Of a DNA stretch of 64,000 nucleotides, positions 18,053-52,662 are shown in pieces. Source of the DNA: a virus; the IMG/VR virus record IMGVR_UViG_3300029305_003918; one strand, 5' to 3'. The notes below the pieces were generated by a model that did no database searches, was not told the DNA's origin, and saw only the letters and a program-made list of their open reading frames with translations. Every line of letters begins with the position of its first letter. Within the stretch, counting starts at the first letter, position 1. The position numbers and the translations under genes are program-made.

Positions 18053-18075
18053 TTCGGAAAGGAGAGAAACTAGCT

Positions 18076-20706: not shown

Positions 20707-21643
20707 TTTAGATAGAATGCGAATTCGTGCGATTTACGCGAATAATGATCGCCAGCGTGAGCGCATGATTCGAGATAAAGAACGCTCTTTTCATCGTGCA
20801 CTTTTGTATTCTTATCAATCTGGTTGGATTAGAAAAGATGCAGAAGATGCTGAATGGTGTAGGGCATTAATCAATCCGGATAAAGTGAAATTTGACTATG
20901 ATGAAAAAATTGTATCGGTCGATTGGAAACATGACTTTAAGCCGGGTGATACTTTTGAATGGCCAAAGGATTCTCATATCCATTGGATTATTCTTAAACA
21001 AGAGTTAACGGAGTTAGCCTACTTTAGGGGCAATATTAGACGATGCCAAGAGATTGAAGTAGAAGATCCAGACACTGGAGATAAATTAACAATCTATGGC
21101 TCAATTAGAGGACCAGTTGAAACTAAAATTAATACAATTCAAAAGGCTGGTATTGTTGCAGATGTGCCGAATATGTCATTAGTTTTTTATGTACCAAATA
21201 CAGAAAAAAATCGACAATTATTTGAGCGCTACTGTAGATTTTCATTTGCGGGACGCACTTGGATGGTGCAAGCTCCTGATGCTATTAGTACACCAGGAGT
21301 ATTGGAAGTGACTGCAGAAGAAGATTATGATTGTCATCATGATGAATTGCTTGTAGAGGTTGTTGATCCCAATAAAGAGGTTGAGGCACCATTGGCGCCG
21401 CAAATTTCTGGAGAAACATTTATTAAACCTTTGCAAAGTGTATCTTATACCTCTAATCTTATTGATCCCGATTGCTATTGGTATATTACGTTAGCTTCTG
21501 ATAATAAAGAGGTTGCTGATGTATTAACTTGGAGCACAGATAAAAATGTGTTAACTGTTCAATGGACCGCGATGGTTAGTGGACAATTTGAAATTCATTA
21601 TGGACCTCTTGTAAAAACAGTTGTTGTTGAATCGCTGTTTTAA
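20699..21643 (+). CDS. Hypothetical protein (314 aa)
   Basis: Intact track ORF that overlaps the upstream stop. Confidence 0.45.
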   Translation: MDNLDRMRIRAIYANNDRQRERMIRDKERSFHRALLYSYQSGWIRKDAEDAEWCRALINPDKVKFDYDEKIVSVDWKHDFKPGDTFEWPKDSHIHWIILKQELTELAYFRGNIRRCQEIEVEDPDTGDKLTIYGSIRGPVETKINTIQKAGIVADVPNMSLVFYVPNTEKNRQLFERYCRFSFAGRTWMVQAPDAISTPGVLEVTAEEDYDCHHDELLVEVVDPNKEVEAPLAPQISGETFIKPLQSVSYTSNLIDPDCYWYITLASDNKEVADVLTWSTDKNVLTVQWTAMVSGQFEIHYGPLVKTVVVESLF

Positions 21644-21658
21644 GAGGGAGGGGTATGC

Positions 21659-22405
21659 ATGTTGCAGTTAATGGCTGGAACCGATATCCCAATTCCAGAA
21701 TTAGGTACAAGTTTACATTAGCCAACTATTAGAGAAATTTCTTTCTTAGGCGAAGAATAGTATTTTTCATCGTTACAAATACTATGCTTCAATAAATAGA
21801 TAATCATAGCTGCAAACCCATAGGGCAGTTCTGCTCTATAGGCTATGAATAATTTTTAGATATTTATGACGTTGGTAACAGACCCAGAAATGAAAAACGT
21901 AAATGAAAAACGAAATGCAATGATTTCAATGTTTGTATTACTTTTTCCTGGGTATACCGCTCAATTTCTTCCTCATAGCATCTATTTTAATAATGCTGAA
22001 ACTTAGCACCACTTTGTTTTAGATGAAAATAATTTTGATGCTTTTTAGGCTGTATTAACAAATATGGCTGGTATGAATAATACTGCGGGTGGATAGAATT
22101 CTAATTTCAACCCTGCTAATGAGCGAGCCGCTCAAATTGCGGCCAAGCTAATGAAAGGTCGTTAGAGAGCAGCCCAGCTACGAGGAGAAGGGGAAGGAAG
22201 CGTGTTAGCTCGTTATGTATCTATTCTTACTATTGGATTAAATTCAATGAGTCTAGATAAGTGTTTAGATCTAACTGTTTATTAGCTATATGATTTAATT
22301 GAACGATATGGCTTATGGATTAGTTGGGATTTAGACATACGGTCTCGCTTGGCCGGAGGTAAACCCGATGGCAAGCCCAATGATTGGATGAAAAATATCC
22401 ATTAA
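21659..22405 (+). CDS. Hypothetical protein (~248 aa) carrying about 14 in-frame TAG codons
   Basis: SD GAGGGAGGGG then ATG at 21659. A single frame runs to a TAA at 22403 with 14 TAGs and no TAA or TGA. It is invisible to the ORF track. With TAG read as Q the translation is protein-like (for example NPQGSSALQAMNNFQIF and VYQLYDLIERYGLW). Confidence 0.5.
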
Positions 22406-22430: not shown

Positions 22431-23363
22431 ATGAAATTTGGTGTACGCGAAATTTGTGACGTTGTGCTAAAGAAGAAGGCCGGCGGTTATTTCGGTAAGC
22501 TTTATTTGGATAAGAACATGCCTGTTCTTTATTTCGATACCTTGAAGACTTCCAGTCTTGAAGGTACTGCTACTACTGTTTATGCTCAGGGTGGTAAAGG
22601 TAATCCTCGCTTGGTAGCTTGGGAAGGCGACCGCGTTGTAACCTTTACTATGGAAGATGCTTTGATTTCTCCTGAGAGCTTCTCCATTCTTTCTGGTGCT
22701 GGTTTCATGGATGCTTCTGATGATGAGAAGATTTATGTTCATGCTACCGAACAGTTGGAAGTTGTTAATGATGGTGGCGCTCTAAAGGTTAAGCTTGAGA
22801 AGAAGCCTTCTAATCAGGGTGAAATGTATATCATGCTCATGACTGAGGACGGCTCTATTGATGCTTCTAAGCTACCTATGCAGATTGCTTCTACTGATAT
22901 TGGTGCAGAAATGGTTATTCAGGATGTTCTTGATAACTGGGCTACCGCTTACAATCAGGATGCTCGTCATATTGAATTGAAGCTACCCACTCAGAACGCT
23001 CCTACTGTTGCAGAAGGCGACATTCTTTATGTTGACTACTACATCGAAGCTGCTAAGGGCGTAAAGCAGATTGATATTGAAGCTGGTAAGTTCGGTGGTT
23101 CTTACTATCTTGAAGCTTCTACCTTGTTCCGTGATCAGGCAACTGGTGATGACTTCCCTGCAGAGTTCATTATTCCAAACTGCAAGGTTCAGTCTAACTT
23201 CACCTTCACCATGGCTCCTACCGGTGATCCTTCCACCTTCACCTTTACCATGGATGCTTTCCCGGATTATACCAAGTTTGACAAGACCAAGAAGGTTATT
23301 GCTGCTCTTCAGATCGTTGAAGATGCTGGTATCTTCGGTCAGTTGGATGAAGCACAAGAATAA
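22431..23363 (+). CDS. Major tail (tube) protein candidate (310 aa)
   Basis: Intact ORF with strong SD TAAGGAGG and a strong terminator downstream. Positioned upstream of the chaperone-like and tape measure genes. Confidence 0.4.
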   Translation: MKFGVREICDVVLKKKAGGYFGKLYLDKNMPVLYFDTLKTSSLEGTATTVYAQGGKGNPRLVAWEGDRVVTFTMEDALISPESFSILSGAGFMDASDDEKIYVHATEQLEVVNDGGALKVKLEKKPSNQGEMYIMLMTEDGSIDASKLPMQIASTDIGAEMVIQDVLDNWATAYNQDARHIELKLPTQNAPTVAEGDILYVDYYIEAAKGVKQIDIEAGKFGGSYYLEASTLFRDQATGDDFPAEFIIPNCKVQSNFTFTMAPTGDPSTFTFTMDAFPDYTKFDKTKKVIAALQIVEDAGIFGQLDEAQE

Positions 23364-23979: not shown

Positions 23980-23992
23980 GGAGTAATTGACT

Positions 23993-25270
23993 ATGGGAAA
24001 ATATAGTTTTATAACAGAAGCAGCCCAAAAAGCGGCAGATGATATTATTGATATTTTATCAAAAGCTTCTGACGCTTTAGTAGATGAAAATAATATACAA
24101 GGATAGGTATTACGCGAAAAAGCTAAATTATTTGTAGATGCTTATCAGGTATTAGATGCAGCTGTGAGTGAATATAATGCTATAGCTTCTAAATATATGA
24201 CACAATTAACAGAAACTTAGAAGCGCACTGGTATAGCAAAAATCCGTATTAATACAATTAGAGCATATTAGTCTGGTGAGTTATCTTTGGATGATTCTGG
24301 CAGAGAAGCTATGGAACAATTATTAAATATAAAAAAAGAAGCAGAAGCACAGCGACAAAAGTTACGTGTATTAGAAGGCAAACAAAGAACAATTGATAAA
24401 CTATTATTAACTGCTGAATAGGCACGTAATGAGTTTCAAAATGCACTATTAGATTTAGTGAATAGACGTATTGAATATTTGTATGTTGTTAAAGGTAAAA
24501 AAGGCACTGTGGATATTCGTTTATTGGGTAATGCAAAAGAATTTAGTGAAAAATATTTATATACAGACTTTGCTTCTTTGAGTCATGGTGGTCGTGCAAC
24601 CGCTCGTGTTAAAACTATTAAAGATTCAGATGGCAAACATTTTACTTTAATAGATAAAGCTTTAGAAACTATTGGGACTCAATTAACCGCATTTTATGAT
24701 GAGTTATCTCGTAGAATGGAAATTGCGCAAGATAAAGGCACTAATCTTTTAATGTGGAAAATTGGCGGAGAATGGAATAAAGTAGAAATCAGCTCTTTAG
24801 GTGATTTAGCAGAAACTTATGCAAATATTTTAGTAACTTTTAGCACAAGGCTTATGAATAATCCCAATTTAAAAAATCCAGTTGACATTATGCCAGATTT
24901 TTTAAAACCTAATCATGGCAATTGGGATGAGCGCATTGATGATTTTGTACGAGGATGGTTACATCAAGTAGATAATGCTCCAGGTTTCTTATCAGAAGAT
25001 ATTGAAGGCGGAGTAGATATTAATGGTAAAACTATTTATTATGGCGTAAAGAGTAATGGCGCATCCGCGGCGGGTATGGAAACTGTATATAAATTTGCAT
25101 TACGTATCAAAGATTTTGAAGCCAAAATGGATTTAGAAGAAAAGTAGTATTGGGCTCGACAATTTTCAGCAACAATAATAGGACCTAAACGAAATTAGAT
25201 TGTATAGCTTATTGAATCTGAATTAGCAGATTTAGAAAGTATATTAGATTAGATTGGACGAACGCGATGA
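23993..25270 (+). CDS. Hypothetical protein (~425 aa; at least 8 TAGs)
   Basis: ATG at 23993. The frame of track ORF 24458-25147 extends both upstream and downstream through TAGs to a TGA at 25268. Confidence 0.45.
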
Positions 25271-25338: not shown

Positions 25339-25863
25339 ATGGCTAAAGTTTCTTTGAAAGCGGTCACCCCTATTAAGAAGGTTGATCCACAGACTATTAA
25401 GATTGGTGAACAGGAAGTTGAAGTCATTCAGTATCTTCCTGTAAATGATAAGCTTGCTCTTGTTGAGCGAGTATTGAATTTGACTATTGACGATACTGGA
25501 TTTTTGAATCCTGTTCGTTTAGAAGTTTATGCAATTCTTGAAATTGTAAAAACTTATACAAATATTTCTATTACTGATAAGATGATAGAAAATGCTCCGA
25601 ATACTTATGATCTATTAATGATTAATGAAGTTCTTGATCATGTTATTGCTGCAATTCCCGAAGATGAATATGATGCTATTTTTGATGCGATTGAAGATTG
25701 TGCGGAGCATACTGTTAAGTATTTGAATTCTTTTGTTGGAATGATGAAAACTGTAACTAATGATTATGATGCTACTAAATTGAATGTTGAAGAGATTATG
25801 AAAACACTTGATCAACCTGATAAGATTGGATTAGTGAAGGATATTCTTGATAAGATTGGTTAA
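25339..25863 (+). CDS. Acidic protein (174 aa); a tail assembly chaperone candidate
   Basis: Intact ORF immediately upstream of the tape measure gene, with an acidic composition. A terminator follows it. Confidence 0.35.
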   Translation: MAKVSLKAVTPIKKVDPQTIKIGEQEVEVIQYLPVNDKLALVERVLNLTIDDTGFLNPVRLEVYAILEIVKTYTNISITDKMIENAPNTYDLLMINEVLDHVIAAIPEDEYDAIFDAIEDCAEHTVKYLNSFVGMMKTVTNDYDATKLNVEEIMKTLDQPDKIGLVKDILDKIG

Positions 25864-25897
25864 TTTATTTAAATAAACTTTGATAGAGATTAGGAGA

Positions 25898-25931
25898 AAA
25901 GCCTGACACAATATTTGTGTCAGGCTTTTTT
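25898..25931 (+). terminator. Intrinsic terminator before the tape measure gene
   Basis: AAAGCCTGACACA...TGTGTCAGGCTTT followed by TTTTT. Confidence 0.6.
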
Positions 25932-25952: not shown

Positions 25953-28900
25953 ATGGCTGGAAACAGATAGTTTACATTACAATTTAATGCTGACACCTCT
26001 TAGGCTAAAAAAGCTTTAAGTGAATTACAAAAAAGCTTAAATAAAGTGTCAACTGTGGATTTGGAAGTAGCAATTTCAGATTCAGCACTTAAAAAAGCTT
26101 CTGAAGCTGCGCAAGATTTAAAAAAGCATTTACAAGAGGCTACTAATGTAAATACTGGTGAATTAAATCTTAACACATTTGTTAATAGTTTAAATAAAGC
26201 TGGCACATCTGTTACTCAATTAGGCAATGCTTTATTAGATGCAGGACAAACTGGTCAAGCAGCTTTTTCACAATTGGCTTCTGTTATTGCCAGTGCAGAA
26301 GTACCAATTAAGCGCATGAATAGCACATTAGCTGCATGGGGACAGACTTTAAAAAATACAGTAAAATGGGAATTATCTTCTACAATGGTACATGGTTTAG
26401 AAAGTGCATTATCTGGAGCTGTGTCCTATGTAAAAGATTTAAATAGTTCTTTAACAAATATTCGTATTGTTACTGGACAAAGTGCAGAAGATATGTCTCG
26501 ATTTGCTGTATAGGCTAATCGCGCGGCGAGAGAATTATCTACAACCACTAAAGCATATGCTGATGCATCTTTGATTTATTTTCAATAGGGCGATAGTGCA
26601 GAATAGGTAGCTAAAAAAGCAGCAATTACAATTAAGGCAGCTAATTCAAGTTTTAATACTTCTGCACAAGAAATGTCAGAATATTTAACTGCAGTATGGA
26701 ACTCTTATCAAGTCGGTGCTGATGAACTTGAACGATATGTAGATATTATGGCAGCCCTTGGTGCAAAAACCGCCACTAGCTTAGAAGAAATTGCAACTTC
26801 TATGCAAAAAGTAGCTGCAACTTCTAATACAGTTGGTGTATCAATGGAGCAAGTTTCTTCCATTATTGCTACAGTTAGTTCTGTTACTCGTGAATCCGCA
26901 GAATCTATTGGTACTGCATTTAAAACAATTTTTGCTCGTATTGGTGATTTGAAACTTGGAGAGACATTAGAAGACGGGGTAAATCTTGGACAAGTATCTT
27001 CTCAATTAGAAAAAGTTGGTGTATCTATTTTAGATGCTAACGGCGAATTGAGAGATATGGGAACAATTATTGAAGATTTAATGGCCAAATGGGGAGAAAT
27101 GGGACGAGCAGAGCAAACTGCTATAGCACAAGTGATTGCCGGTAAACGACAATATACTCAATGGATGGCCTTAATGGAAAATTCTTCTATGTATAAGTCC
27201 AATATGTCTATTGCAACAAATGCGGAAGGTTCTTTACAAGAAATGGCAGATATTGCAGCAGAATCTTGGGAGGCAGCATCCAGAAGAGTTCAAGCAGCCT
27301 GGGAAAAAATTTTTAGTAGTTTAATTAATGATAAAGCTTTGGTCGGAGTGACTAATGCAATTGAAAAAATTGTAACTACTCTTGGCGGCTTAATTGATGG
27401 TATGGGCGGTGTCGCTGGTATTATCGGAACTGTTGGTGGTGCATTAACTCAAGCTTTTAGTGATGATATTGCAAACGGTATTACAAAAATTACTACAAAA
27501 ATTAAAGACGCATTTACTGGAATGAATGAACAAACTAGATTTTTACAAAATTCAGCGCAGATGCGTCAAGAGTTACAAAAAATTTAGAAAGATAGTTCAG
27601 TATTAGATCCATCACAAGATATGCAAATTAATGCAGCTTTAAAAGTTTCTGAGAAAAAAGATCAATTATTAGTTGCATCAAAAAATATGTCAGAAGGACA
27701 AATTGCGCAAGCTAAAGCAGTAATTTCAGCTTATCAAGAACAAATTGCTGCATTAAATGAGTTAATGCAATTAGAGCAAAAACGTCAGACTAACATGAAA
27801 AAAGAAAAATCTTCATTAGTAGATGAAGTAGTAAGTCAAGAAGCTAAAGCTAGAGCTCATAAATAGAATAAGGATTATGCTTATTTAAATGCGCGAGAAA
27901 AGAAAAAATTTACAGAAGAAGCAAATAAAAAATTTTTAGTGGATGCGGCTGATATTAAAGTTAAGTTTACAACAGATGCTACTTCCACTAAAGAACTTGA
28001 AAAAACCGTATCTTAGCTTGCACAAGAGCTTGGTTCTAGTTTTACTAAATTAGGTTTTAAGGATTTAGAAAATTTAACATTTGATTAGGCGGTTTCTTCT
28101 GCTTAGACATTGGTTACAGCTTTTGGAGATGTTAAAAATATGGGAAAACAAATTGAACAAACTTTTGGAACAATTGAAGCACCAGAATTATTTGCATCTA
28201 ATCGTAGTGATGCTGAAATTCTAAAAGATCTATTGCAATATGCTAAAGAATTAGAACGAATTGGACAAGAAACAGGTAGTAAATTAATTAATGGTCAAGT
28301 TGCGAAAATTAAAGGCAACGCTGGATCATTAGAAGAAGCTTTTGCTGGGGATAAAACAAAAGCAGAAATTGAACAATTATTTAATTTAATTTCTGAAGGT
28401 ATGTCTAAGGCTGAAGCGAAATTATCTAAAAATGTACCAAAAATTAAAGCGATTATTTTAAATATGGTACCACCAGAATTAAAAAGCCGTTTTGAAGAGT
28501 TATTCCAAGAATGGGAAAAAGGTGGATCTAAATTAGATAAACTGGGTAAAGATGCAGAAGAAGCTGGCGAAAAGATGGAACAAGCTTTTGCTCAAGCCGC
28601 ACAAAAAACATCTAAAAATTTAAATGCAGTTTTAGATATTGCAGGAAGTCTTGAATCAATTTATGGTTTAATTAATTCTTTTAAGGGTTTAGTTGACACA
28701 TTAAAAGATCCTGAAGTGTCTGGCTGGGAAAAATTCGATGCAATTTTAGGATTTGTTATTACAACTGTAATGACTCTTGTTTCTATCAGTCAAGGCTTAA
28801 TCGGCGTAATGTCACTATTGCCTGCTGCTGGAGCTGCTGGCGCGGCAGGAACGGCTGCGGTTGGAGCAGGCGCGGCTGGTGCAACACATGCAGTCACAGG

Positions 28901-31900
28901 TTTTGGTGTTGCATTAAATACTGCAATTTGGCCATTAACTTTAATTGTAGGAGCATTGGCTTTAGTTGTAGGTGCATTCGTTGCTTTTAGAAAAGAAGTC
29001 GAAAAGCCTATGAGTGTAGATGAAAATTTGCAAAATTTAAAATCTTAGGTTGAAGAGTTAAGCACAGCAATTACCAATACTAAAAATAAAATATCTTCTT
29101 TAGAAGATGATTTTGATTCTTATACAAGTGTTAGAGAAGCATTAGATAATTGCACTGAAGGAACTTCAGCATGGTATCAAGCATTAAGTAATGTTTAGTC
29201 TGCGACTTTAGAATTATTAAGTGCATATCCTTTATTGGGGAAGATATTAAAAGATCCAATAAAATATTTTGGAGATAATTTTGATTTAAGTTCTTTATAT
29301 GATGATAATGGCTTGATTAATATGGATCTATTGGTCTCTAGAGCCTTAGAAGTTGAACAACGTAATTTAGGTATGCAGTATGCTTGGTCAGCGTTAGGAG
29401 AATCATCCATGCGTCAATTGGAAATTGCGCAAGAAAGACGTGCTGAAATGGCGGGAGCTTCAGGAAATGTTTTAACTAATACTGAAACAAAAACTACTAA
29501 GCATTCTATGTTATTTGGAGCTATTAAGTGGGAAACTACTTCAGAAATAATTCCTGAAATTTTACAAGAAGCTTTTCCGGGATTAGAGGCACTTGGATCA
29601 CGAGAAAGTTCTTTGCCATATATATTAGGTTGGGCAAATCCATATGGTACCGCTTTTAAGCCTGAATATGCTACAACTTTTACTAGTCCATCGGGAGAAA
29701 CTAGACATAATTTAACTCCTGAGGATGCACAAGAGGTTGGTTATGACACAACACAAGGCTGGTCTGTTGAAAATTATGAAGCGATTCAATGGTTATTAAA
29801 CAGCGCAGATGGCGACAAGTTTTTTAAGACTCTTAGTGGCGATGATTATGAATATGATCAAAGAGCGTTAATTAATACTGTTGTTACTGAAGCTTTAACT
29901 TGGGCAAGTACACAATATGATAAAACATATAAAAATGCCGGAGAAGCAGTTTTAGATTATTTAAACAATGGACATTTACCTTACGCATTAGAGCAATAGC
30001 TTCATTTATGGATGGATCCATCTGCTCAATATGGCAGTGTTTTTGATCCAAACGCTTTTGTAGGAGCTTTAACAGATACAGGTGTTTTAACTGTAAATAC
30101 AGATACTGTGTTTGCACAAGGGGCAGCTAAAGCAAGGGCTGATGCTCTTTGGTAGCCTGCACAATATGGCATTTTAGCTAATTATTTATTAAATGACAAT
30201 AATAAAACTGCTAAATATGATGCAGATACAATGAAATGGCTATAGACTGCTCTCCCATATAAATTAGAAGAAATTTTAGTAAATTCTTTACCTGAGAATT
30301 GGGTGCCTGATGCAGAAGCACAAGATTGGGCTCAAATGGGTGGTTATTTATTATCATATCGAGATTATCTCGCAACCAATAGCGATTATGATATTAGTCA
30401 ATATGATTGGACAACAGACAAATTAATGGATAATTATGATAAAGAGTCTGGTATGATTACAATTAAATCTTTGTCAGAAGACGTCGAAGATTTATTAATT
30501 CCTATTACGTCATTATTATCTATGCCTACTCTTACTGATATTATGAATAATCCAGAGTAGTATATAAGTCCTTTAATTTCTAGTTACGCAACTGCAGATC
30601 CTGTATTATAGAAATTATATTTATCAAAAGGTAATATGGATGTCCTTACAGGAGAAGAGTTAGCATATTACCAAACCGAAGAAGGGCAAGCTGTGTTTGC
30701 ACAGCATTAGAGTGCATTGGCAGATATTTATGGCGGTGACATTTTAGGCATTTTTTCAGAAGGTAATTTGGCAACTTTATTGGAAGATTCTACTGCATGG
30801 GTTTCAGAATGGGGCGAATTTGGCAATTAGTTAACTAGAAGATAGCAAAAAATGTTATCAGAACTTAGTGGTTACGAATAGCAATTAATTAAAGATTGGG
30901 CTAATGGGGATATAAATAAAATTTTAAGCCTTTTTACAAAAGGTGGAACTTTAGATTTATCACAAGTTGATGGATTAAACAATTATCATTAGACACAATC
31001 ATCTCGTTCAACCGATAATTTATTAAATTTTAAAAATGCTATTCCTGCATTGTCTGAAATTTTAGCAACAATTCAAGAGGGTGGATTGATCTCACAAGAA
31101 GAGTTAGATTTATTAGAATAGTATGGTATTTTAACTCAAGATCAATTTGCAAAAATTGGTGAAGAATGGCAATATATCGCAAATTCACAAGACAATGCAT
31201 TGTCTAAATCAATTTTATTTTCAAATACATTATATGAAATTTTAAATAAATTCGCAAATACAGAAGATGCTTTAATTGATTTTGATAATTTAACGTCAGA
31301 AGATCGCAAATTATTATCTCTGCTTTTAGGGTTAGATGATATTACCAAAGATACAGCAGGCAAAACTGCTTTGGATAAGTGGTTAGAATCATCTACTGAT
31401 ACAGAAAAATAGGATGTTAATAGTCGAATTGGAACTTTATGGGCTAGTCGAGATACCTTATAGGTTACATCAGAAGATTTAAATAGTTGGTACGCAACAG
31501 TTACTTCATTTACAGATTTAATTAATGCAGGTTTTACGAAAGATGGTAAAGCAGATTTTTCTACCATCCCAGCTTGGGCAAGAGATTCAATTTTATCTAA
31601 TATCGCTAGTGCGAATGGTTATGACTTAGAAGAATTAAAATTATATAATTCTAATGCAGCAATTACAACATAGCAAGCTTATGAAGATGCAGTAATTAAA
31701 TCAAATCGAGCCAAAGGATTTAATTCTTTAATTGGTATGTTGTCAGATTTTACTGCATTAAATCAAGATATGGCAGATTCCACTATTACTGAAGCAAATT
31801 TGGAAAAATTTAAAGCTTTAGCTGATATTTTAACTTTAATTTTTGGGACAGAAGTAACTACAGATTGGCTATAGAATGCAGATAATTGGAAATTGGTTTC

Positions 31901-34900
31901 TGCATTATTTGATAGTGATGGAACTGGTGGTTCTGAGGCTTTAGCTGCTGTAGAAACGGCATTATACAAAGATGTTGAAGGGTATACAAATAGAAATTGG
32001 TCTCAAGAGGGTATTTATATTGATGCAGCTTTTAAGCAAGACCCGGAGCAAATTGCTAAAGTATTAGGTATAGATCCTGCAACGGCTTATATTTTATCCT
32101 AGGCAAATTTAGCAGAAGGATATTTTGATGTTGGTCGTAATGCATGGGCAGAAAACAAAAACACTTTGGCGATGGGACTGGGACTTTCTTTAAAAGACGG
32201 AAAATATGCTTTACCAACTGATACCACTTTAATGAAAAATTGGGGTATTCAAGCAGGATATTTAACCGAAGATGAAGAAGGTAATCTTAGTTTAACGCAA
32301 TAGGGTGCAGCAATTGCTAAAGATGTAGATGGATTTTATGCAGCCATTATTACCGCGGTAAATAATGGAGCTAAGACTTTTGATATTGCTAATGGTAAGT
32401 TTTCTCAGAGAGTTAAATCTGCTTATGAAGAAATGATTAGTGATAACTACATTTTTGATACTGCCGAAGATCAAGAGACTGCGGCAAATATTTTGGCCAA
32501 TGCCGAAGCTTCTGCTGGACAAATTGGTATTGATCGAATGAAAGCAATGTTAAAAGCAGTTCCGGTAGAAAGATTAGATGAATTTTCCAATGCTCTTTCT
32601 GGTGTTGATTGGGGAGATCCTGCTTCTGTACAAGCTTTTGAAGATCGATTAAAGGCTGCAGGATTTACTTTAGAGGGACCTCTGCAAACTGCGATTAATG
32701 CAGTTGCAACTGCGGCTCAAGCCGCAGCGGAAGCACTTATGTCTTTGGCAGGTGCAGCAAATATTTATAAAACTCGTACAGATATTGCTGATAAAGTCCG
32801 AGAAGGTGAAGCATTAACAGCAGAAGAATATGCAGAAGTTATTGCTGCATATGCAGAATAGGAAAAAACTAAAGCTAAAGCAAACGGAGAAGAGATTTCT
32901 GATGCAGAAGCTTATAAAAGGGCTGAGATTAGAGCTAGAGGTGAATTTGAAGCCAATCGTTGGGGAGAATATGAATTAAGTGATAGCGTTAATCCTGAAA
33001 CTTGGGCAGCGAACTTGGAATCTGTTGCTATGGCAGGTTTTGATACAATTTTAAAATCAATTGAAGTTGCTACGACAAATAAAGAAGGAGAAACTCGTGA
33101 TTTTACAGATGATAAATATACCGATCAAGAAGCTGCGATTGCGGGCCTTATTGCAGGTAACACAGAAAAATTTTCTCCTTATGGTATAGAATTTTCTGAA
33201 GCAGAGCAAAAGGCGTTATTAAGATTATCTTCTGCAACTACTGATCAAGATAAAGCATCGGCGATGGCAGACTTAACTGCTCTTGGATGGGATCCATAGA
33301 AATGGTTAGATGTACTTTCAGCATTTGATCAAATTATTGGAGGGGTAAAAGAAGAGACACAAGAAGCTAAAGATGATGCTACAACTGGTACTGGAGAGGA
33401 TAATTTTGAAGCTTCCCTTGATGATTTGGCAACTAAAGCTGGTTTTGGTAGTGTTGAAGAATTAAAAGAATATACAGAATATCTAAAAGAATTAGGCGAA
33501 ATTAATGGAGAAACAGAAGAAGATAATATCAAATTGGCAGCTTCATATGCAAGAGTTCAAAAGGGTTTAAAATCTGTTTAGTCCAATTTAAAAACATATT
33601 CTAAAACATTAAAAGAGGCATAGAAGGGCACTGTTGAACATAAAAAAGCTCTTGATGACATGAAAGAAATGTATGGTGATGTTCTCGATTTGGATGATAA
33701 GGGAATTGAAGCATTAACAGAAGACTTTATGTTACAAGATGACGTATTAAAAGATTTGTAGGATGCTGCCGATGGTGTCGATGGAGCTTACGATAGATTG
33801 CAAGAAAAAGCTTCTAAGCATATTTTAGATCAATTAACAGGTAATGCTGATATTTCATCTATGACGGATGAGCTTGAAGCCTTATCAACAGCAGTTAATG
33901 GTTTACCAGAAGGTAAAGCTCTTAATTGGAGTGAATTGTTAGGAGAAGGCGAAATGGGTCAAGTGGTTGCGAATAACTTAACTTCATTGGCTGGTTTTGT
34001 CTCTGGTTTAGCCTCTAATGCGAATGAAGCAGCAAGTATTATGCAAGCTTTGGCTGCGGCATTGGGAATGGATATGCAGGTTGAAACTAAAGAATTTCCA
34101 GTGGAACAAACAGAGTGGTCTGCAAAAGCAGGTAGTTATATCGCCCATGGTGAAAATGGTCAAGACTTTTATATTCCTTTAAGTGTTCATGCCAATCCTG
34201 TTGATGGTATGGTTAAAGGTTTTGCTATTAAAACTATCACTAACAAAGGCACCTATGGTGGAGGTATCACCGGTGGTGGCGGCGGAGGTGGAGGTGGCGG
34301 AGGTGGCGGAAAGCCAAAGAAGCTTGATAAAAAGAAGCCAGAAGATCATAAACAGCGCTATTTCCAAGTAGATAATGCATTAGAGCGTATGGCGGATGCA
34401 TTAGAAAAAGTAGATAAAGTTAAAAAGCGTGTTTATGGAGAATCTTATTTAAAAAATTTAGAAGCAGAAATTTCTTTAATTGAACAAGAAATTGGCTTAT
34501 AGGAAGAATATGTCAGATAGGCTCAAGAGTGGTTAGCAGTTGATAAATAGAGAGTTGCTTCTCTTGGTGCTACTTTTGATGGCGAAGGGAATATTTCTAA
34601 TTATGATGCTTTAATGGATTCTATTTTAGCTAAATACAATGCATTTATTGATAAATACAACGCTGCTGATGCTTCTGCTCAAGAAAATATGGAAGAAGAA
34701 AAAGAGCAAATGGACGAATGGTTTGAAGAAGCCTTGGAATGGATTGATCAATATCAAGAAACTTTAAACCTTATTGGTGACAAACAAAATGAAATTCTTG
34801 AATTGCAGAATCAAATTTCTGAAAAGACTCTTGAAAAGATTCAATATAAAGTCGAATACAAAGTTGAAATTAATGAAGCTGAAAAAGATTATCTTGATTA

Positions 34901-37328
34901 TATTAATGATAAATATGATGAAGTTCTTGAAAAACAAGATCTTCTTATGGATAATTATATTCGTCAAGGACAAATCGCAGAATAGAATTTAAGTTATCTT
35001 GCCACAGCTCGTCAAGAACTTGAAGCTGCATTCGCGGCGGGAGATCTTAATCAAGCTGATTACGTTGCAGGTCTACAGGATATTCAATCTCAAATTCTTG
35101 ATAATCTTGAGGCAATTCAAGAAGCTAAAAAAGCAATTGAAGAACTTTATGGTAAGACTCTTGAACTTGCTAGTGAAGAACTTGACAAGCATACTGCAAA
35201 AATTGATGCTGCTTCTGAAGCTATGGGCTCTTATATGTCTATTCTTCAGCTTATGGGTAAAGGACAAACATTTGAAGATTTGTTATTCTTCTATGAAAAG
35301 CAATATGATTATAATATGGCTTCTCTTGAATCTCAAATGTCCTATCTTAATGTACTTAAAGAAGAAGAGCAATATTATCTTGCGCGCATGAACTCTGCGG
35401 AAGGATTAACTGAAACAGAACGAATTCAATATGAGGCATTGCAAGAGACAATGAATGAAGTACAAGCAAATATTCTATCTAAGACTGAAGAAACTCTTCA
35501 AGCCTTAAAAGATATGTACGATACTACAATCGAAGATATTATGAAAGATCTTGAAGAATCAATGGTTGGTGTGGGTAATGATCTTGCTTGGCTCACTGAG
35601 GAATATGGTTTCTACATGGAAGAAATGGAGCAATATGTTTCTTCTCAGCGTGAACTATATGAAATTAGTAAGTTAAATCGTAATATCCAACAGTCAATCA
35701 ACGACACAACTTCTAGTGTACATAAAAAGCAATTAAAAGCATTACAAGATGAAATTAATGCTCAAAGTGAATTAAAAGAATTAAGCGAATATGAAATTGA
35801 AATGATGAATCTTAAATATGAACTTCTTCTTAAGTAGATTGCTCTTGAAGAGGCTCAAAACGCTAAGAGTACTGTACGCTTAACTCGTGATAGCGAAGGC
35901 AACATGGTATATCAATATACCGCTGATGAAGATGCTATTAATCAAGCCCAGCAAGAATATGAAGATGTACTTCAGCAAATGGCTGATACCAATTGGGAAT
36001 ACGAACAAGATATTTATAATCAAACTTTACAATTACGCCAAGACACGCTTGAAGCTATTAAAGAAATTGCTATGGATGAAACTTTAACAGAAGAACAAAA
36101 ACAACAAAGAATCAATGAGATTTTAGATCATTATTATGAACGCTCTCGTTATTTACAAGAGCAATATAATATTGTTAGTGAAAATACAATGACAACCAAT
36201 GAATTAATTGCTGATCATTATGGTATTGCAGTTGAAGAAATTACAGATAGAACAAAAGGTACTGTTGCTGAAATTATTGGTGAAATGATTAATGATACTG
36301 ATAATTATCGAGATGAAATGGAAACCGCTTATGATCGTATTAAACAGGCCATGTCAGATTATGCAACTAAAATTGCAGAAGTAACTATATTAACAAATAC
36401 TAGTTATGGTAGTATGGTCGAATCTGTAAATACTTATGATAAAGTAACAGAAGATGCAAAAAATGAAACTGTAAAAATGACAGATTCACTGCGTCAAGAG
36501 GTAAGTCAAATTCATACTACTACAACAGCTTGGGATAATTATATTTCTAAATTAAATAGTGTTATTGGTACTTATGAATCAATGTATTTAGAAATTTAGA
36601 AAGTTATTTAGGCCTAGGCAAAATTGGCCGGCGCGAGTGTTGGCAGTACTACAACAACTACCACTAAAACTACTACAACTACGACCAAAAAAGATACCAC
36701 CACCACTAAAAACAATGATAAAACTGGAGATACAGGTGGTAAAACTGGCGGCACTGGTGGAACCGGTACACAAGATAAATCTTCTGGATTAAATATTGGT
36801 GCCGTTCTAGGCGCAGTTGTTGGTGGAGTTGTTGGTGGAGGCGTAGGTTCTAAAGTTGGTGGCACAGTTGGTGCGATCATTGGATCTGGTGTCACTAGCG
36901 TAGCAGGAGCTATTGTTGGCAATAAGCTTGGTGATCTAATTAAAGATAAAACTGGCAAGAAATATGCCACTGGTGGCCTCGCTGATTATACTGGCCCCGC
37001 TTGGGTTGATGGCACTAAGAGTAGACCGGAATTAGTATTAAATCAAAATGATACACAAAAATTGCTTGATACAGTTAAAGTAGTAAATAAACTTGATCAA
37101 GCCACATTAACTATGATGGATGAATATATTAATTTGGCAACCGCAGCTTCAAGAGCTAATATGTATAATTTACATGCAGAAACTACCCAAACCACCAAGG
37201 AAACTGAATTGCAACAACAAGTTCATATTACCGCAGAATTCCCGAACGTACAAGATAGTAATGAAATCCAAGATGCTTTTGATAATCTTATTAATCGCGC
37301 GGCTCAGTACATTGGTTCAAAACGCTAA
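25953..37328 (+). CDS. Tail tape measure protein of ~3790 aa, with about 40 in-frame TAG codons
   Basis: SD GAAAGGAG then ATG at 25953. Fifteen consecutive track ORFs (26046 through 37328) all lie in frame 0 and are joined only by TAG codons. All gaps were inspected and contain no TAA or TGA. The N-terminal ~500 aa match the phage tape-measure (TP901-type) domain (GETLEDGVNLGQ...ILDANGELRDMGTIIEDLMAKWGEM...AEQTAIAQVIAGKRQ). The protein has a hydrophobic Gly/Ala-rich transmembrane-like block, coiled coils, a poly-Gly run and a poly-Thr run. Confidence 0.8.
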
Positions 37329-37335: not shown

Positions 37336-37366
37336 AAGGGGTCTCTTCGGAGACCCCTTCTTTTTG
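37336..37366 (+). terminator. Intrinsic terminator after the tape measure gene
   Basis: AAGGGGTCTC-TTCG-GAGACCCCTT followed by CTTTTT. Confidence 0.6.
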
Positions 37367-37448: not shown

Positions 37449-40400
37449 ATGGCAGAATAGAAAAATGGTAATTTGCAAAACGATTTATTTGATGCGATTT
37501 ATACAATTGTAACTGGAGTCGTATCAAAGCAAAATTTTGATATTACCAAAGAGTGTAAAATCATTGAGGTTTATCTTGATGATAAAGGTGCTCGCACTGG
37601 TGTCTATAAAGTAAAAAGCCAAGACGCAGTTTTTGATGCTTATGCTAAATAGGGAGAAGTATATAGTGCAGGTCAGCAAGTTTATGTACAAATCCCAAAT
37701 GGTGATTTTAATCTTCAAAAATTTATTATTGGTTTAAAAATTAATACTGAAGATGAATAGAGCATATATAATCTCAAACTTCCTTTTGATGATTTTGTGG
37801 GATTATATAATTTATCATATAATACGCCAATGTAGGAAGTTGGTTATTGGGCTAATTGTCCTTATCATGGAGAAGAACAAACGCTTATTATGGATGTTGC
37901 GAATGAAACATTCCCAATATCCGAAGATCATGTATGGCATTGGGAAAACATTGAAAAACGTCCTATTTGTGCCACAAAATTGGGTTTAGAAGTTGATGTT
38001 ACTACACTTCTACATACTTTTAGACCTCAATCTGGTGAATATGGATTACGTATTTGTGTAAGAGGTCAAGGCACTGAAGATAAAACTTCTGGTGCTATTG
38101 AAACTTTAACACAAGAATATTACTTTACTAACAATAATATGTACGGTAATCCATATGCTTATACTTTAGCCTCAACACAACAAATCGTTGTGGACATCTC
38201 TAAATTTACCAATTCTATTGATAGTATTGACGTATGGTTTTGGCAAGATCATAAATTTATTGATGAATATGGTAATCCAATCCCTTGGGGATCTCAAGAC
38301 ATAGAAACTATTAAAGAAGATTTTATGGCTTAGATTAAAGCCGTAGAAGATGATACAAGTCTTTCAGAAGAAGAAAAAAAGATTCGTATTAACGAAATCT
38401 ATGTTTAGTTTGGAGAAGCCACTGGTCGAAGTGCAGAGTTAAAAAATATTATTTTTAATAATTTACATTGTTTGCTTGGACTTTCTGTTGAGGAAATGCA
38501 AGAGGAAACAATTACATTATATACATATGATGTAGTTACATATGGCGCAGACCCTGAGAATGAGGCAGTGCGTAAACCTGATCGTACTCTTTATGCCGCA
38601 TGGGTTCATAAAGTAGATAACACTCTTGAACTAATTGATACATATTCAAGATTAGAAGAATTAGAAGCAAAAACATATTGGTATAGATATGATCCTGAAT
38701 GGGCGCCAGAGCATCCCGAGTATAATTCAGAAATTCCATCTCATCGTTTCGGTGGTAATTATTGGCGCCCTATTGGAACAGATGCTGATGTAGAATATGA
38801 TGAAAATACTCCAATTAATTTTGTTGTTACTCCCGATATAAATAAAGCAAAAGAGCGCTACAAGGTTGTAATTCATTTTAATAATACATATACTACAAGT
38901 AATGTATTTATTTTTTAGAATTATAACACAACGATTGAGAGCGATATTGCCAATTTGGCGCGCAATGATAAAGTTGTATTACGTTGTGCGTTATTGAAAC
39001 CATCTGGCTATGACGTATATGATTCTCGTGGAAACTTGGTTGGTTCCTGTTCAGAAAAATTACCTACTGGTAAAGGTTATTTCTTTACAACTACAACAGG
39101 TAAAATGGAACTTTTAACTGATACTCATAGATTAGCGCCAAGAGAATCTGAAACTCTTGTTCCCGATGACACTGTTGGTAATTTCTTTGTATATAATGAA
39201 AATAATAATGTATTAGCTAATGATGATAATATTTTATTCTCAGATGTGCAATACTATATTGAACCTTGGATCAAAGTTGAAGAGGATCGTAGAAATCTTG
39301 CTTCAGATTACGTATATGCAGACAAAGATGCCGCTTATGTTCGTTTAAGCGAGTACACTGATCGAGATGGTAATAAACCGAATTTTAATATTACTTGGCA
39401 ATTCCCAGAAAGTTTTACTATGATTAGAGCATGGGGAATGCTTGATGATAACGCACGAGATATTGCATATTGGAATCATCGTTCAGATCATTTATTTGAA
39501 TTAGATAAAAAAGCAACTCGCTATTTTTATATTGATGCTATTCATAATGTGCGATATAATGACAATGAAATTAGTGCTACAATTGATATTGATGGTATGG
39601 GTTCTTTTTCTATTAAGAAAGAACTAATTTTTGGACGAGCAGGAGCTTTTGGTTGTGAATATACTCCTGTTATTACCATTAGTGAACCTGCTGGCAATTA
39701 TTATGTTGATACCGCAAGTGAATTTGAAATCTACTGTTTAGTATATGATCGTAAAGGTCAATTATTACCATTGGATGAAAGAGCAAAGTGCGAATTCACT
39801 TGGAAATATTATGGTACTGCATATAAACCAAAAGATGATAGAGACCATCTAAATTATAAAGATTTTATTGGCAATGTTATCCGTGGCCGCATTACACAAC
39901 CTTATCCTTTTGTTGTTGAGGTTACGGTATCTGGTGCGGCAGAATATGATATTACAGTCCGAAAAGGTATTTTAGTAAGTAACAGTGCTCAATATATGCA
40001 AACGCATGATATTGTGTGTCCAGATCGTGTAGAATTTAGATCTGACGGTCAAGCACCAATTTATGCATCAAATGTATTTGAAGTACAAAAAATTATTACT
40101 GGATCTGATACTTCTGAAGAAACCGGCGAAACATATGATTATATGAATGAATTGATTTATCCAACATGGTAGATCAATCAAACAAAAGTATTACGCTTAA
40201 TTGAAAAAGAGGCTGAATATCCAGTATTTACTTTACCAAATGGAACTTCTGTAAGTAAAGCAAATCAAACTTCTTATGCGTTAGGTTTTTCCGCGCAACA
40301 ATTAAATACTCATGTAGCAGATCCTTCGGCTTATGCACAACAATGGACAGAAGATTTATTAACAGATGAGTATTTTACTTATATATATTTTATGGATGGT

Positions 40401-43400
40401 ACCACAACAGTCGCGCAGGGTATCGCATTTGCGCAGAACCTTTATCCTTCTTCTCTTGTTAATGAGTGGGATGGTTAGAGTCTATCTCTTGATTATGAGA
40501 ACAGTGCGATTATTGCAAAAATGATTGCAGCAGGCACAAAAGATCAGCGCAATCGTTTTACCGGTGTTATGATGGGTGACTGGCATGAAAAAGGCGATGA
40601 ATCATTAGATACTCCTGGCCTATACGGATTCAATGCAGGACAACAGTCTTTTGGATTTAAAACTGATGGCACTGGTTTTATTGGTCCATCTGGTGAAGGA
40701 CGTATCCATTTTGATGGACGAAACGCTTTAATTAGTAATTCAACTTAGACTTGTTATATTAATTTAAATCCTCGTCGTTTATTGGATTATCTGACAGAAG
40801 ATGAAAATGGTGGTTATGTAATTAGTAATCAAGCATGGGATGCTATTGGTAATCAAAGTATTTCACAATTTTTCTTATATACATAGACACCAAGACGTAT
40901 TTCAACATTTTGCGATGAATTGGCGGATAAAACATTAAGTTGGATGCAAGATTGGAGTCATCATGAAGAACTACTATGGGTAGATGAATTTATGAATGAT
41001 GAAGATCATGATTATTTCTTAGTAGACCCAAATTATGGCGTAGTTACAACTGGTGGTATTTTTGCTAGATATGGTCGTATCGGTAAAGATTATCCATGGG
41101 TTATTAGTGACTATGGCTTGACATAGAAGAATATTTTTGGTAGAATATTTTTAGGAAATCCAGAAAAGAACTTGTCAAATGGTTCTTTTATTCCAAATCC
41201 TACATATACTTTAAATGGAGAAGAAGTTACTTCTTATACCAAAGAATATAAAGATGGAACCACTGAAGTTTTACCTGTTCCAGAGAATTTCTTTACTGCA
41301 TCTTTTGCAAATGAAGATAATGTTATTTAGACAGGTATTAGATCTGATGGTTATCTATACACCAAATATGCAACCATTGGTAATTGGTATATTAATGATT
41401 ATGAAATTTATGCAACCGATAGAAATTTTGGTGGAGGCCAAGCTCAAGGTTATCGTAAATTTTATGATGATTTTACTGATGAAAATGGAATGCCTTCTGG
41501 TTTTAGAGATCAAGGAGATGGCGAGCATAATGGTGACTGGATTAACTTAAATGGTCATGATTCATTTATTGCCTTTATGAAAGGTAAAATGATTATTAGT
41601 GGCCGATATGGTTGGATGGGTTTATCTACTGAAGATGAAGGTATTGAGTTAATTGCTGAACCAACATATTATAATATGTTAATCAATTTTACTACAGGTG
41701 ATATTGGTTTTGGTTTAGAAAAAGCAACAGGAGAAGATCCATTCCCAATTCCAAAAAGCTTTATCAGTGGCAATAATGGTAGTGCTTATTTCTCTAAAGG
41801 TCAAGTTCAAATTGATGGAGAAACTGCTTCTATTTATTGTGGTATTTCGACTGAAAGTCAGGGTGTTTTTACTGATCTTTCGGAAGATATTGCAGTAACA
41901 GAAGAGTTGGTTGAAGGTAATTTATATCTTGCAGCAATTCATTTACAAGGTTTGACTTATAAAGAAGATACAAATACTAATTTCATTATGCCACGTGCAT
42001 ATGAAATGGGTGAAGAATATAAACGAACCACTGAATTTACAAAAGGTAGTAAAGATGATAATTATGCCGCAGAAGGAACAATTATTCCTTTTGATTTAAG
42101 TGGTTTCCCAGATTTTTCTCAAGATGACTCAGATATTGTAACTCCTCCAGACAGTGATGGTTTGGTTTGGTTAACTAATTTTACTGGTACATTCCACACT
42201 TCAGTAGAATTAACAGATGCGCAATCAGATGAAACTTTACAGCTTGGTGGAGCGGGTTTATTTGCTGTGTATCATGATGCTAAAGGTATGGGATTTAATG
42301 TCTATCTTGGTTCTGGCGGAGAATCTATTGGCAGCAATGTTACAATTGTTCCTCGTGGAGCCGATTTAGGTTATCTTTATTAGTGGAATATTTATGGTGA
42401 ATCTGCTAGATTTACTAAAAATCTTGATGTTGATGGCTCCATTTATGGAGGAGTAATTTTTATGCTTGATGATAATAATGAATCAAGAACACCTACTCCT
42501 TCATTGGTTGCAACTCAAGCTTGGGTAAATAGAATTCTTTGTGAAGAAGTTTATCCAAAAATTGTTGCTGCTAACAACTTAGCTGCTGCGGCAATGAATA
42601 AAGCAATTGAAGCTTTAAAGAAAGCTAAAAATGCTTTAGCTAAGGCTGTTGGTCAAGCAAATTTACGTGTTGACCCTGCTGGAGGAGATGGCTCTGCGAT
42701 TATTTCCATTGAATTATAGAGTATTTATGGAAAAATGTTGCAGGAGAGTTTTAACGGCAATGGTAATACTCCTGGCGCAACTGTCGGTGAAGGTACCGCT
42801 CTTGCTTTAGCGGAGCATGGACACGTATTAAATTATGAAATTTCAGAAGGTAAATTAAAAGCTTCCGTATAGATTGGTACAGTTGGTGCTGATACTTCTA
42901 TGGGAGAAGATGCTGGACAACCCATTTTTGAAGATGGGGCTTGGACTATGGGTACAAGCAGTGGAAAATTAACTGGCTCTTTGACAATCGCAGGAAAATA
43001 GGTTGACTTAACAGATGAGCCTGAAATTTTTGGTGAGGGCGGTTTTACAATGAGTGCAGAGGGCGGATCTATTGTTTATTCTTTAACTATCGCGGGGGCA
43101 ACAGTATCCGATTCTTTTAATATTGCCGCCACGAAATATCATATGGACCAAATCGCGGCGGCATATAAAGCTGGTTATAGTGCGGGTTTTGCTCAATGTG
43201 AAGCAGACACTCAATATACTGCTTCTTCATATACTCAAGAGTCACATAGTTATACGGCAGCAAGCCATTATTATAAAGCTTCTTCACATAGCAAAAATGC
43301 AGATGGAACTTGTAATTATACAGCTTCATCACATTCATATACCCCAGCCTCTCATTCATATTCGCCATCAAGTTATACTGCTAGTACATTCTTTCCTGCT

Positions 43401-43442
43401 TAGGAATCAACTCCCTCTTCAGGATGGGAATCTTACTATTAA
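37449..43442 (+). CDS. Giant distal-tail or tail-associated protein (~1997 aa; more than 20 TAGs), probably a Dit/Tal-like baseplate hub
   Basis: ATG at 37449 after SD AAAGGAG. Track ORFs 37890, 38472, 38955, 40521, 40920, 41490, 42462 and 43050 are all in frame 0 and joined by TAGs only. No internal SD+ATG was seen at the junctions. The C-terminus carries SHSYT-like repeats. Confidence 0.6.
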
Positions 43443-51273: not shown

Positions 51274-51287
51274 GGAGGAGAAAAGAA

Positions 51288-52643: not shown

Positions 52644-52662
52644 AAATAGGAGGGACTAACTT

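Follow-up and report, generated by a model that had tools for sequence, protein, structure and literature searches.

The 64,000-nucleotide stretch of viral DNA analysed here (IMG/VR record IMGVR_UViG_3300029305_003918; referred to below as the window) carries on its plus strand, at positions 25953-37328, a long open frame that very probably encodes a single tape measure protein (TMP) of the TP901 type. The protein would be 3,791 residues long and modular, with TAG read as a sense codon, and its length would set the length of the phage tail. The frame starts with ATG, runs through 3,791 sense codons and ends with TAA; it contains 42 in-frame TAG codons and no in-frame TAA or TGA. A ribosome-binding site, AAAGGAG, was found at 25937, with the ATG seven bases downstream. 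Frame statistics, family models and colinearity with the TMPs of known phages identify the gene, and they agree with the original prediction of one giant TMP with TAG as sense and a TP901-type N-terminal domain.

Searching the translated protein with profiles, as that prediction had proposed, revealed a TP901-type core at residues 152-498 (positions 26406-27446, plus strand). TIGR01760 matched this whole segment (E=3.2e-42; 144.8 bits, cut-off 28.8) and PF10145 (PhageMin_Tail) matched residues 190-397 (E=1.5e-29; 103.7 bits, cut-off 33.2), both far above their cut-offs. Two TMP families with models of about 2,600-2,700 positions, phrog_4211 and phrog_34405, matched the N-terminal 500 residues. 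Both were found again in the C-terminal third, where residues 2793-3587 correspond to positions 1655-2412 of phrog_34405 and residues 3510-3778 to positions 2438-2614 of phrog_4211. Searches of the TMP against Pfam, PHROGs and NCBIfam found no enzyme domain, and no lysozyme or peptidase in particular, as had already been noted by eye. Three hydrophobic segments were identified on the Kyte-Doolittle scale (residues 927-957, 981-1016 and 3613-3656), and AlphaFold2 (AF2) models of TMP fragments were mostly helical, with low confidence.

The closest annotated genomes are those of Enterococcus phages VRE9_1-4, H1, EF1 and EF5 (134-142 kb) and of phAss-1, a phage that uses genetic code 15. The TMP of VRE9_3 is an uninterrupted standard-code open reading frame (ORF) of 2,673 residues, and both of its ends are colinear with the window TMP: residues 1-502 of the latter align with 1-518 of VRE9_3, and residues 2786-3790 with 1640-2673, up to its last residue. 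The TMP of phAss-1 gave a colinear match at four places along the window TMP. Since both ends are colinear with VRE9_3 and phAss-1 matches colinearly as well, we conclude that the frame encodes one protein. The gene order also fits a TMP gene, with genes of families phrog_2729 and phrog_30570 upstream and large ORFs downstream. The same upstream PHROG families precede the annotated TMP gene of VRE9_3, with some rearrangement close to it, and the syntenic module common to the two phages comprises PHROGs 24618, 4088, 3853, 31155, 6123, 4051, 2729 and 30570.

Reading frame and genetic code

TAA and TGA together make up 7.6% of the codons in the other two frames of the TMP stretch. About 289 in-frame stops would be expected in the TMP frame at this rate, or about 224 from base composition, and none was seen; the log10 probability of zero TAA or TGA is about -100 to -130. 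In-frame TAG codons were also found in other late genes on the plus strand, with two in the terminase gene, seven in the portal gene, 11 in 21659-22405, eight in 23987-25270 and 18 in 37449-43442. The phage, whose genome is probably about 171 kb, thus probably uses TAG as a sense codon in its late genes. In an alignment of five TMPs of the clade to which the window belongs (see below), Gln was the commonest residue opposite TAG (118), followed by Glu (96) and Lys (94), and aligned VRE9_3 proteins had Gln at 6 of 27 TAG positions. Judged from these aligned residues, the amino acid inserted at TAG is most likely Gln.

Were TAG a true stop, the region would be a series of over 20 small genes or pseudogene fragments; alternatively, read-through might be partial, giving rise to a ladder of truncated proteins. 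The frame does break up into more than 20 ORFs when read in the standard code, public gene calls have pieces of it as separate proteins, and the window holds no suppressor tRNA, all of which would suit this explanation. However, it would leave 11.4 kb free of TAA and TGA at a probability of about 1e-100 or less, and the matches to single-ORF TMPs cross TAG positions at both ends of the protein. The relatives are Gln-rich in the TAG columns, the conserved, single-copy terminase and portal genes likewise require read-through of TAG, and in the related phAss-1 group the decoding of TAG as Gln, with three suppressor tRNAs, has been documented (PMC10607447). If 42 TAGs were decoded inefficiently, almost no C-terminal domain would be made, yet this domain is strongly conserved. 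The original prediction had named a split of the frame at particular TAGs as the finding that would speak against it; instead, the standard-code relatives were continuous over 2,755-3,386 residues with the same terminal modules, and the predominance of Gln opposite TAGs of the clade is further evidence against such a split. We consider a true stop extremely improbable, and both a split gene and a ladder of read-through products are in practice excluded.

Standard-code gene calling shreds the TMP gene into more than 20 'hypothetical proteins', and such fragments sit in public databases. As a result, routine pipelines overlook one of the largest phage proteins. Two database proteins, P0001 (254 residues; 22 contigs) and P0004 (234 residues; 3 contigs), were found to be identical to pieces of the window TMP. 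Of these contigs the longest has 171,532 bp, and one source is JGI sample 3300020079. With identical fragments on record, the phage is evidently contained in public metagenomes, its TMP mis-called under the standard code.

TAG is unevenly spread over the window and is concentrated in some late genes, making up 69% of the Gln-type codons in 21659-22405. The Gln-type codons of the TMP gene are 161 CAA, 17 CAG and 42 TAG. The probable major capsid and tube genes (17348-19122 and 22431-23363) contain no TAG and have Gln nearly always as CAG, with CAA:CAG counts of 0:13, 1:11 and 1:12 in these TAG-free probable capsid and tube genes. The large ORFs at 50056-61704 are also free of TAG.

Clade and modular organization

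IMG/VR was scanned with an alignment of the N-terminal core, which yielded 331 related loci, and the best 80 of these were analysed. Complete ORFs were obtained from 61 of the 80, ranging from 2,755 to 3,795 residues and from standard-code members without TAG to recoded ones with up to 111 TAG codons. Seven loci were still open at about 3,850 residues, and one (L012) was open to at least 4,174. TMP spans were also obtained by combining the N-terminal with the C-terminal match found on one contig, a procedure that reproduced six known ORF lengths to within one residue; it gave spans by coordinates, with presumed continuity, of about 4,372 (L048), 4,516 (L028), 4,538 (L042) and 4,957 residues (L018). 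TMP length in the clade varies almost two-fold, up to about 4,960 residues by coordinates. The four longest spans approach the 5,002 residues of gp96 of Thermus phage P23-45, a TMP with a fused virion RNA polymerase (PMC10770324).

In a further seven loci (L041, L059, L069, L080, L081, L082 and L085) the TMP is interrupted by 9-28 in-frame TGA codons. With TGA read as sense, five of the seven gave complete TMPs of 2,561-2,905 residues with the C-terminus of the clade, and L041 and L081 ran off the loci. Full-length ORFs, all with the same C-terminal domain at the end, were found in standard-code, TAG-recoded and TGA-recoded relatives; as read from these frames, one TMP clade is written in three genetic codes. 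Cultured members of the clade infect Enterococcus, and metagenomic ones include human-gut phages.

The nearest relatives by N-terminal tblastn identity (63-65%) include L004 (3,766 residues) and L007 (3,795 residues), and L008 has 54% N-terminal identity and 3,763 residues. The original prediction had called the protein exceptionally long and had proposed a comparison with related recoded phages. Its giant size stands, at 3,791 residues, but within the clade (about 2,560-4,960 residues) it is not an outlier, because it falls in the upper part of a continuous range; TMPs of 3,149-3,209, 3,275 and 5,002 residues have also been published. The window TMP is a further representative, and a long one, of a protein type already known, and 'exceptional' holds for phages in general but not for the clade. 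The window adds a member with a predicted tail of about 0.57 µm to a clade of more than 330 IMG/VR loci and does not overturn current understanding. Useful additions are the modular plan, with the position of the hinge and the length-variable middle, a variable slot, the size range and the three codes within one clade.

The plan shared by the clade consists of an N-terminal module, a variable middle, a hinge, a long helical module, a variable slot and a conserved stretch of about 120 residues at the end. In the window TMP, residues 1-620 have 47-57% identity to the four IMG/VR relatives compared. Helical sequence follows the TP901 core, and with it comes a hydrophobic Gly/Ala-rich block at residues 927-1016 (28731-29000), with Kyte-Doolittle means over 19 residues of up to 2.43. 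It consists of two membrane-helix-like segments (927-957 and 981-1016) flanking a AAGAAGAAGTAAVGAGAAGA loop, and in nearly all clade members it lies about 820-1,240 residues from the N-terminus. The core of the variable middle, at about residues 1190-2280 (29520-32792), has an acidic, aromatic-rich and proline-containing composition and no detectable homologue.

The hinge, at residues 2744-2800 (34182-34352), was recognised in the translation as GFAIKTITNKGTYGGG, followed by a run of 13 glycines (Gly13; residues 2774-2786, positions 34272-34310) and directly after it by the basic stretch KPKKLDKKKPEDHK, which extends to residue 2800 (position 34352). In most clade members a low-complexity hinge of Gly, Ser, Arg and Lys is located about 930-1,220 residues before the C-terminus, whatever the total length. 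The strand-like motif preceding it is GFAIKTITNKGTYGGG in the window and ALKVKSASKESGG or similar in other members. The composition of the hinge itself is free: Gly13 is found in the window and in L007, G8RRG4RRG6 in L025 and Gly/Ser-rich sequences in others, and VRE9_3 has a Lys/Asp/Glu-rich stretch where the others have the hinge.

The conserved start of the C-terminal module, KQRYFQVDNALERMADALEKVDKVKKRVYG, lies at residues 2800-2829 (34350-34439) and was found in most complete relatives. The clade consensus after the basic stretch of the hinge is ERYH...L...KAKDRAYG. VRE9-type phages have it as DRYY...AKDAAYG about 1,010 residues before the C-terminus, direct translation of VRE9_3 giving DRYYKLDHILSEIEKRYSELSDAKDAAYG; a strict regular expression did not find the ERYH/KAKDRAYG motif in Perkons or in the 949 group, both introduced below. 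Proline positions and composition define a proline-free stretch of 885 residues (2797-3681; 34341-36995) that is rich in E, K, Q, L and A. This module is homologous to positions 1655-2412 of phrog_34405, to residues 1640-2224 of VRE9_3 and to residues 1413-2839 of phAss-1. Its first 770 residues or so presumably form a continuous helical, coiled-coil-like module, and the stretch as a whole also spans the Thr/Lys tract and the glycine zipper.

These last two elements occupy, in the window, a variable slot just before the C-terminal domain. They are a Thr/Lys/Gly low-complexity linker, read from the translation at residues 3564-3606 (36642-36770), whose DNA contains tandem repeats at 36648-36760 with periods of 15 and 21, and a glycine-zipper-like hydrophobic segment at residues 3607-3660 (36771-36932), indicated by PF13488 and by a Kyte-Doolittle mean of at least 1.6. 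The glycine zipper was unstructured, at low confidence, in the AF2 monomer model. No C-terminal hydrophobic segment was found in the other scanned clade TMPs at the same threshold, and on the sequences compared the zipper appears to be specific to the lineage of the window. The same slot holds an NlpC/P60 peptidoglycan hydrolase in L084 (PF00877, E=2e-23; about 130-225 residues before the C-terminus) and in the database fragment P0042, and a (GS)n linker in L043. An Ig-like domain guessed by eye in the slot of L004 was not confirmed by Pfam.

The conserved C-terminal domain, residues 3661-3791 (36933-37325), was defined by alignment and reads KYATGGLADYTGPAW..SRPELVLNQNDT ... VHITAEFPNVQDSNEIQDAFDNLINRAAQY in the window. 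Over the last 120 residues or so the clade has TGG..TG...PE(L)VLN..DT ... ITAEFPNV..EI..AF.NL.N.A.QY, with 11 invariant columns across 16 diverse members, and 83 homologous fragments were found in the protein database. An AF2 model of residues 3556-3791, built from an alignment of 78 sequences, had an overall predicted local distance difference test (pLDDT) score of 59.8 and was confident only in two helices. In it the domain is made up of short strands and two helices, one of 44 residues and one at the terminus, with pLDDT values of 80-87 for the helices. A Foldseek search of the PDB with this C-terminal model gave no match.

The internal segments that had been described as unusual, namely the hydrophobic Gly/Ala block, the 13 glycines with KPKKLDKKKPEDHK, the Thr/Lys tract and the glycine zipper, are each present at the place given for them. 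They are mostly either part of the clade-wide architecture (the hydrophobic block and the hinge) or a common trait of TMPs, and with respect to the clade 'unusual' is therefore an overstatement: 95.5% of TMPs contain polyX tracts, chiefly polyA, polyG, polyS and polyT (PMC13585406).

The Phassvirus group, represented by phAss-1 (OQ749652), BK046881_ctckW2 and BK025033_ct6IQ4, is among the closest known systems. Its members are phages of the human gut, about 136 kb in size and recoded at TAG, for which giant TMPs with lengths of 3,149, 3,150 and 3,209 residues have been published (Babkin et al. 2023, PMC10607447), and the window TMP is likewise a TAG-recoded giant. We re-derived the phAss-1 TMP as 3,150 residues with 110 TAG codons. 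Homology to the window was found at the N-terminal core (33%), after the hydrophobic block, in the C-terminal module and over the last 115 residues or so; the hydrophobic block is in the same place, and an ORF of 2,156 residues follows the TMP gene as a large ORF does in the window. The window TMP differs in being about 640 residues longer, in having 42 rather than 110 TAG codons, and in the Gly13 hinge and glycine zipper, both absent from phAss-1. It also belongs to another subclade, with 53-65% identity to L004-L009 versus 32% to phAss-1. The Enterococcus phages VRE9_1-4, H1, EF1 and EF5 (phrog_34405) share with the window both TMP ends, including the C-terminal domain. In contrast to the window, the VRE9-type TMP has 2,673 residues in the standard code, its middle is about 1,150 residues shorter, and it has no poly-Gly and, at the threshold used, no hydrophobic block.

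Lactococcus phages of the 949 group (Audreyjarvisvirus: phiL47, P1048 and 949) and the Psychrobacillus phage Perkons have the TP901-type core in common with the window, as detected by tblastn. They too have giant TMPs, of 3,275 (phiL47), 3,277 (P1048) and 2,439 residues (Perkons), and long tails of 480, 500 and 381 nm have been measured in the 949 group and Perkons (PMC3888941, PMC13245101). Unlike the window they use the standard code, only the N-terminal core is detectably homologous, and their C-termini differ from the AEFPNV...QY ending of the clade. P23-45 and its relative P74-26, whose tail is nearly 1 µm (PMC10034513), also have a giant TMP with membrane segments and provide a precedent for non-ruler domains (PMC10770324, PMC10034513); no sequence similarity to them was found, and the window TMP has no DxDxD motif and no polymerase or metallopeptidase domain. 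The TMPs of lambda (gpH), T5 (pb2) and TP901-1 belong to the same TIGR01760 core family and are largely helical proteins with hydrophobic segments. A TGG(F/Y)TG...H..E.V motif near the C-terminus of the window TMP may be gpH-like (weak profile match, E=0.029). The window TMP is 3-5 times longer than these paradigm proteins; its middle, of about 1,700 residues, is essentially unconstrained in sequence, and the motifs of its hinge and C-terminus are specific to the clade.

Tail length, the variable middle and the hinge

Perkons and phiL47, both found by tblastn with the N-terminal third of the window TMP, allowed the relation between TMP and tail length to be calibrated. The Perkons TMP of 2,439 residues goes with a tail of 380.6 +/- 16 nm (PMC13245101), or 0.156 nm per residue, and the phiL47 TMP of 3,275 residues with a tail of 480 nm (PMC3888941), or 0.147 nm per residue. 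Applied to 3,791 residues, these values predict a tail of 556-592 nm (about 560-590 nm) for the window phage. The original prediction had left open whether the tail is very long or much of the protein has other roles; as tail length in the two calibrated phages comes to about 0.15 nm for each residue of the complete protein, the evidence leans to a very long tail.

Tail assembly would follow the TMP paradigm of lambda gpH, T5 pb2 and TP901-1. The C-terminal domain would be held in the tail-tip complex, and tube subunits, probably the phrog_2729 protein (22431-23363), would polymerise around the extended, mostly helical TMP as far as its N-terminal end. Because polymerisation is proposed to stop there, the length of the TMP would set that of the tail. 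At infection the TMP would exit through the tip with its C-terminal end first, and the hydrophobic block, together with the glycine zipper in the lineage of the window, may assist membrane crossing and the formation of a DNA conduit. In relatives, a peptidoglycan hydrolase occupies the slot equivalent to that of the glycine zipper.

Comparison of the window with its close relatives suggests that length variation is confined to the middle, which is unalignable between them and lies between two conserved end modules. The middle is about 750 residues long in clade proteins of 2,765 residues and about 1,750 in the window. Relatives with 56% identity to the window TMP over residues 1-620, and with 33-48% over the last 1,000 residues or so, could hardly be aligned to it from about residue 620 to 2790. 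In a windowed diagonal scan against L004 and L007, offsets were scattered and scores were about those of a reversed-sequence control over most of residues 1,100-2,500 or so. No homologue of residues 1180-2130 was found among 5.8e9 protein clusters in a word-indexed search, and an exhaustive HMMER search of 1.84e9 representatives with residues 1083-1348 gave only the identical fragment of this TMP and two marginal short matches; TAG-free segments served as queries for the representative search and for AF2. The middle is acidic, richer in aromatic residues and open across thousands of codons. An AF2 model of residues 1083-1348 from the single sequence was uninformative (pLDDT 42.5). Internal duplication as a source of the length was rejected, as self-BLAST gave no off-diagonal matches and Tandem Repeats Finder only short low-complexity arrays.

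L004 and L007 are within 25 residues of the window TMP in length, and their middles cannot be aligned to it. Since these three proteins keep to 3,766-3,795 residues despite unalignable middles, the simplest reading is that the middle is a spacer, of which the length matters and the sequence hardly does. The layout of the clade is then a natural experiment on the evolution of tail length, and it offers a possible engineering rule for cultured relatives, namely to alter the middle and keep the ends and the hinge.

Alternatively, the TMP could be a ruler only in part, with 1,100-1,700 residues or so of the middle serving as an injected cargo or effector like the virion RNA polymerase of P23-45, and the tail would then be shorter. 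P23-45 gp96, of which the N-terminal 1,200 residues or so contain an active RNA polymerase (PMC10770324), and the NlpC/P60 enzymes inside the clade TMPs L084 and P0042 are precedents for such a design; the middle is also unlike the helical modules in composition, being more aromatic, net acidic and proline-containing, and its failure to align even with relatives 56% identical at the N-terminus would be in keeping with it. Yet a conserved enzyme should have relatives, and none was found in the 5.8e9 clusters or 1.84e9 representatives; the middle matches no domain in Pfam, PHROG or NCBIfam and lacks the DxDxD signature of polymerases, and AF2, with single-sequence input only, gave no confident fold. 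Cargo of the RNA-polymerase type in particular was rejected, the DxDxD motif being absent from the whole window TMP and from its closest relatives. Moreover, both calibration phages obey the full-length rule, and even with its fused enzyme P23-45 is extraordinarily long-tailed, as is P74-26 at nearly 1 µm (PMC10770324, PMC10034513). We regard a cargo in the middle as quite improbable. A more specific version, in which the middle (about residues 1,100-2,770) would be a fast-evolving, lineage-specific payload, for example for anti-defence or host takeover, injected ahead of the DNA, swapped at constant length and released at the Gly13 hinge, is very doubtful.

The hinge itself raises another possibility, that one chain is made and then cleaved at the Gly13/basic hinge, leaving about 2,770 residues on the N-terminal side and about 1,000 on the C-terminal side. 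The two products would then have different roles, such as ruler and tip or ejection module. Proteolytic processing in the course of tail assembly is known from TMPs such as lambda gpH. The hinge keeps a roughly fixed distance from the C-terminus and has conserved flanking motifs and a free composition of its own, as is typical of an exposed linker. Exactly at the hinge junction, the L071 TMP (residues 2,050-2,190 or so) was found to carry a mini-intein (Hint, PF07591, E=9e-22; CFIAGTL...VHN), placed after the poly-Gly hinge and before ERYH. However, neither a protease site nor a protease was identified, VRE9_3 has its Lys/Asp/Glu-rich stretch there and no glycines, and a role in cleavage is not needed to explain low-complexity tracts that are near-universal in TMPs (PMC13585406). 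Processing at the hinge is therefore unlikely.

Several points count against a single full-length TMP that acts as a ruler throughout. Both the full-length product and the tail length are predictions, and the tail would be shorter if the proline-containing middle were not fully helical. There are 18 prolines in residues 1121-1540, and because it contains proline and is rich in aromatic and acidic residues, the middle may be broken up as a helix, in which case each of its residues might add less than 0.15 nm to the tail. The argument from conserved length is weakened by relatives at about 52-53% N-terminal identity, which vary from 2,838 and 2,883 through 3,678 to at least 4,174 residues. ARAGORN found no tRNA in the 64-kb window, and hence no CUA suppressor tRNA; with none in the window, it must sit elsewhere in the genome, as in phAss-1 (PMC10607447). 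At the C-terminal end, the PF13488 (Gly-zipper_Omp) match was just under the cut-off (E=6e-5; 23.3 bits, cut-off 25), and a profile of the last 135 residues matched residues 729-766 of lambda gpH (PDB 8iyk_H) only weakly (E=0.029). In and after the gene immediately upstream (25339-25863), neither a slippery heptamer nor an overlapping open frame was found, such as would mark a chaperone pair made by -1 frameshifting; as this feature is common but not universal, its absence does not exclude the gene from the TMPs.

Neighbouring genes and flanking elements

Terminator-like hairpins lie on either side of the TMP gene. The one upstream of it (25895-25931, plus strand), with a 17-bp stem in which an A-run pairs with a U-run, lies between the stop of the preceding gene (25863) and the TMP ribosome-binding site; it has a folding energy of -24.3 kcal/mol (z=-7.9), and none of 200 shuffled sequences was as stable. 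It was not listed by a terminator consensus scan. This hairpin could lower transcription of the TMP gene relative to the genes of the abundant tail proteins. The downstream hairpin (37336-37359, plus strand) starts 8 nt after the TMP stop and has a 10-bp stem with six G-C pairs, followed by a T-run.

The gene at 22431-23363 (plus strand), without TAG, encodes a virion structural protein of family phrog_2729 (E=1.5e-61) and is in the same relative position in VRE9_3; by position, its product is probably the major tail (tube) protein. The gene immediately upstream of the TMP gene (25339-25863, plus strand) encodes an acidic protein of 174 residues of family phrog_30570, the same PHROG being found upstream of the VRE9_3 TMP, and by position it may be a tail assembly chaperone. 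In Perkons (L010) and phiL47 (L170), an integrase or site-specific recombinase gene was found within the tail module upstream of the TMP gene, at 5227-6237 and 21082-22074, respectively. That of phiL47 directly adjoins the TMP gene, and none was recognised upstream of the window TMP. Downstream, the gene at 37449-43442 (plus strand), with 18 TAG codons, encodes a protein of 1,997 residues and is in the same position as the 2,156-residue ORF of phAss-1. A PHROG search with this protein gave no match; it is presumably a distal tail or tip protein, and it ends in a Ser/Tyr/His-rich repeat (SHSYT-like).

In the first part of the window (positions 1-8000) the G + C content is about 49%, compared with about 35% elsewhere, and the AT skew is negative. 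No ORF there exceeds about 230 residues in the standard code, or about 450 with any single stop read through, and no tRNA or Rfam family was found in it. This part may be host flank, non-coding DNA or a phage module with a different organisation. Towards the other end of the window, at 54391-61704, there is a giant TAG-free ORF of 2,437 residues that matches phrog_14959 (E=6e-77), a family of unknown function.

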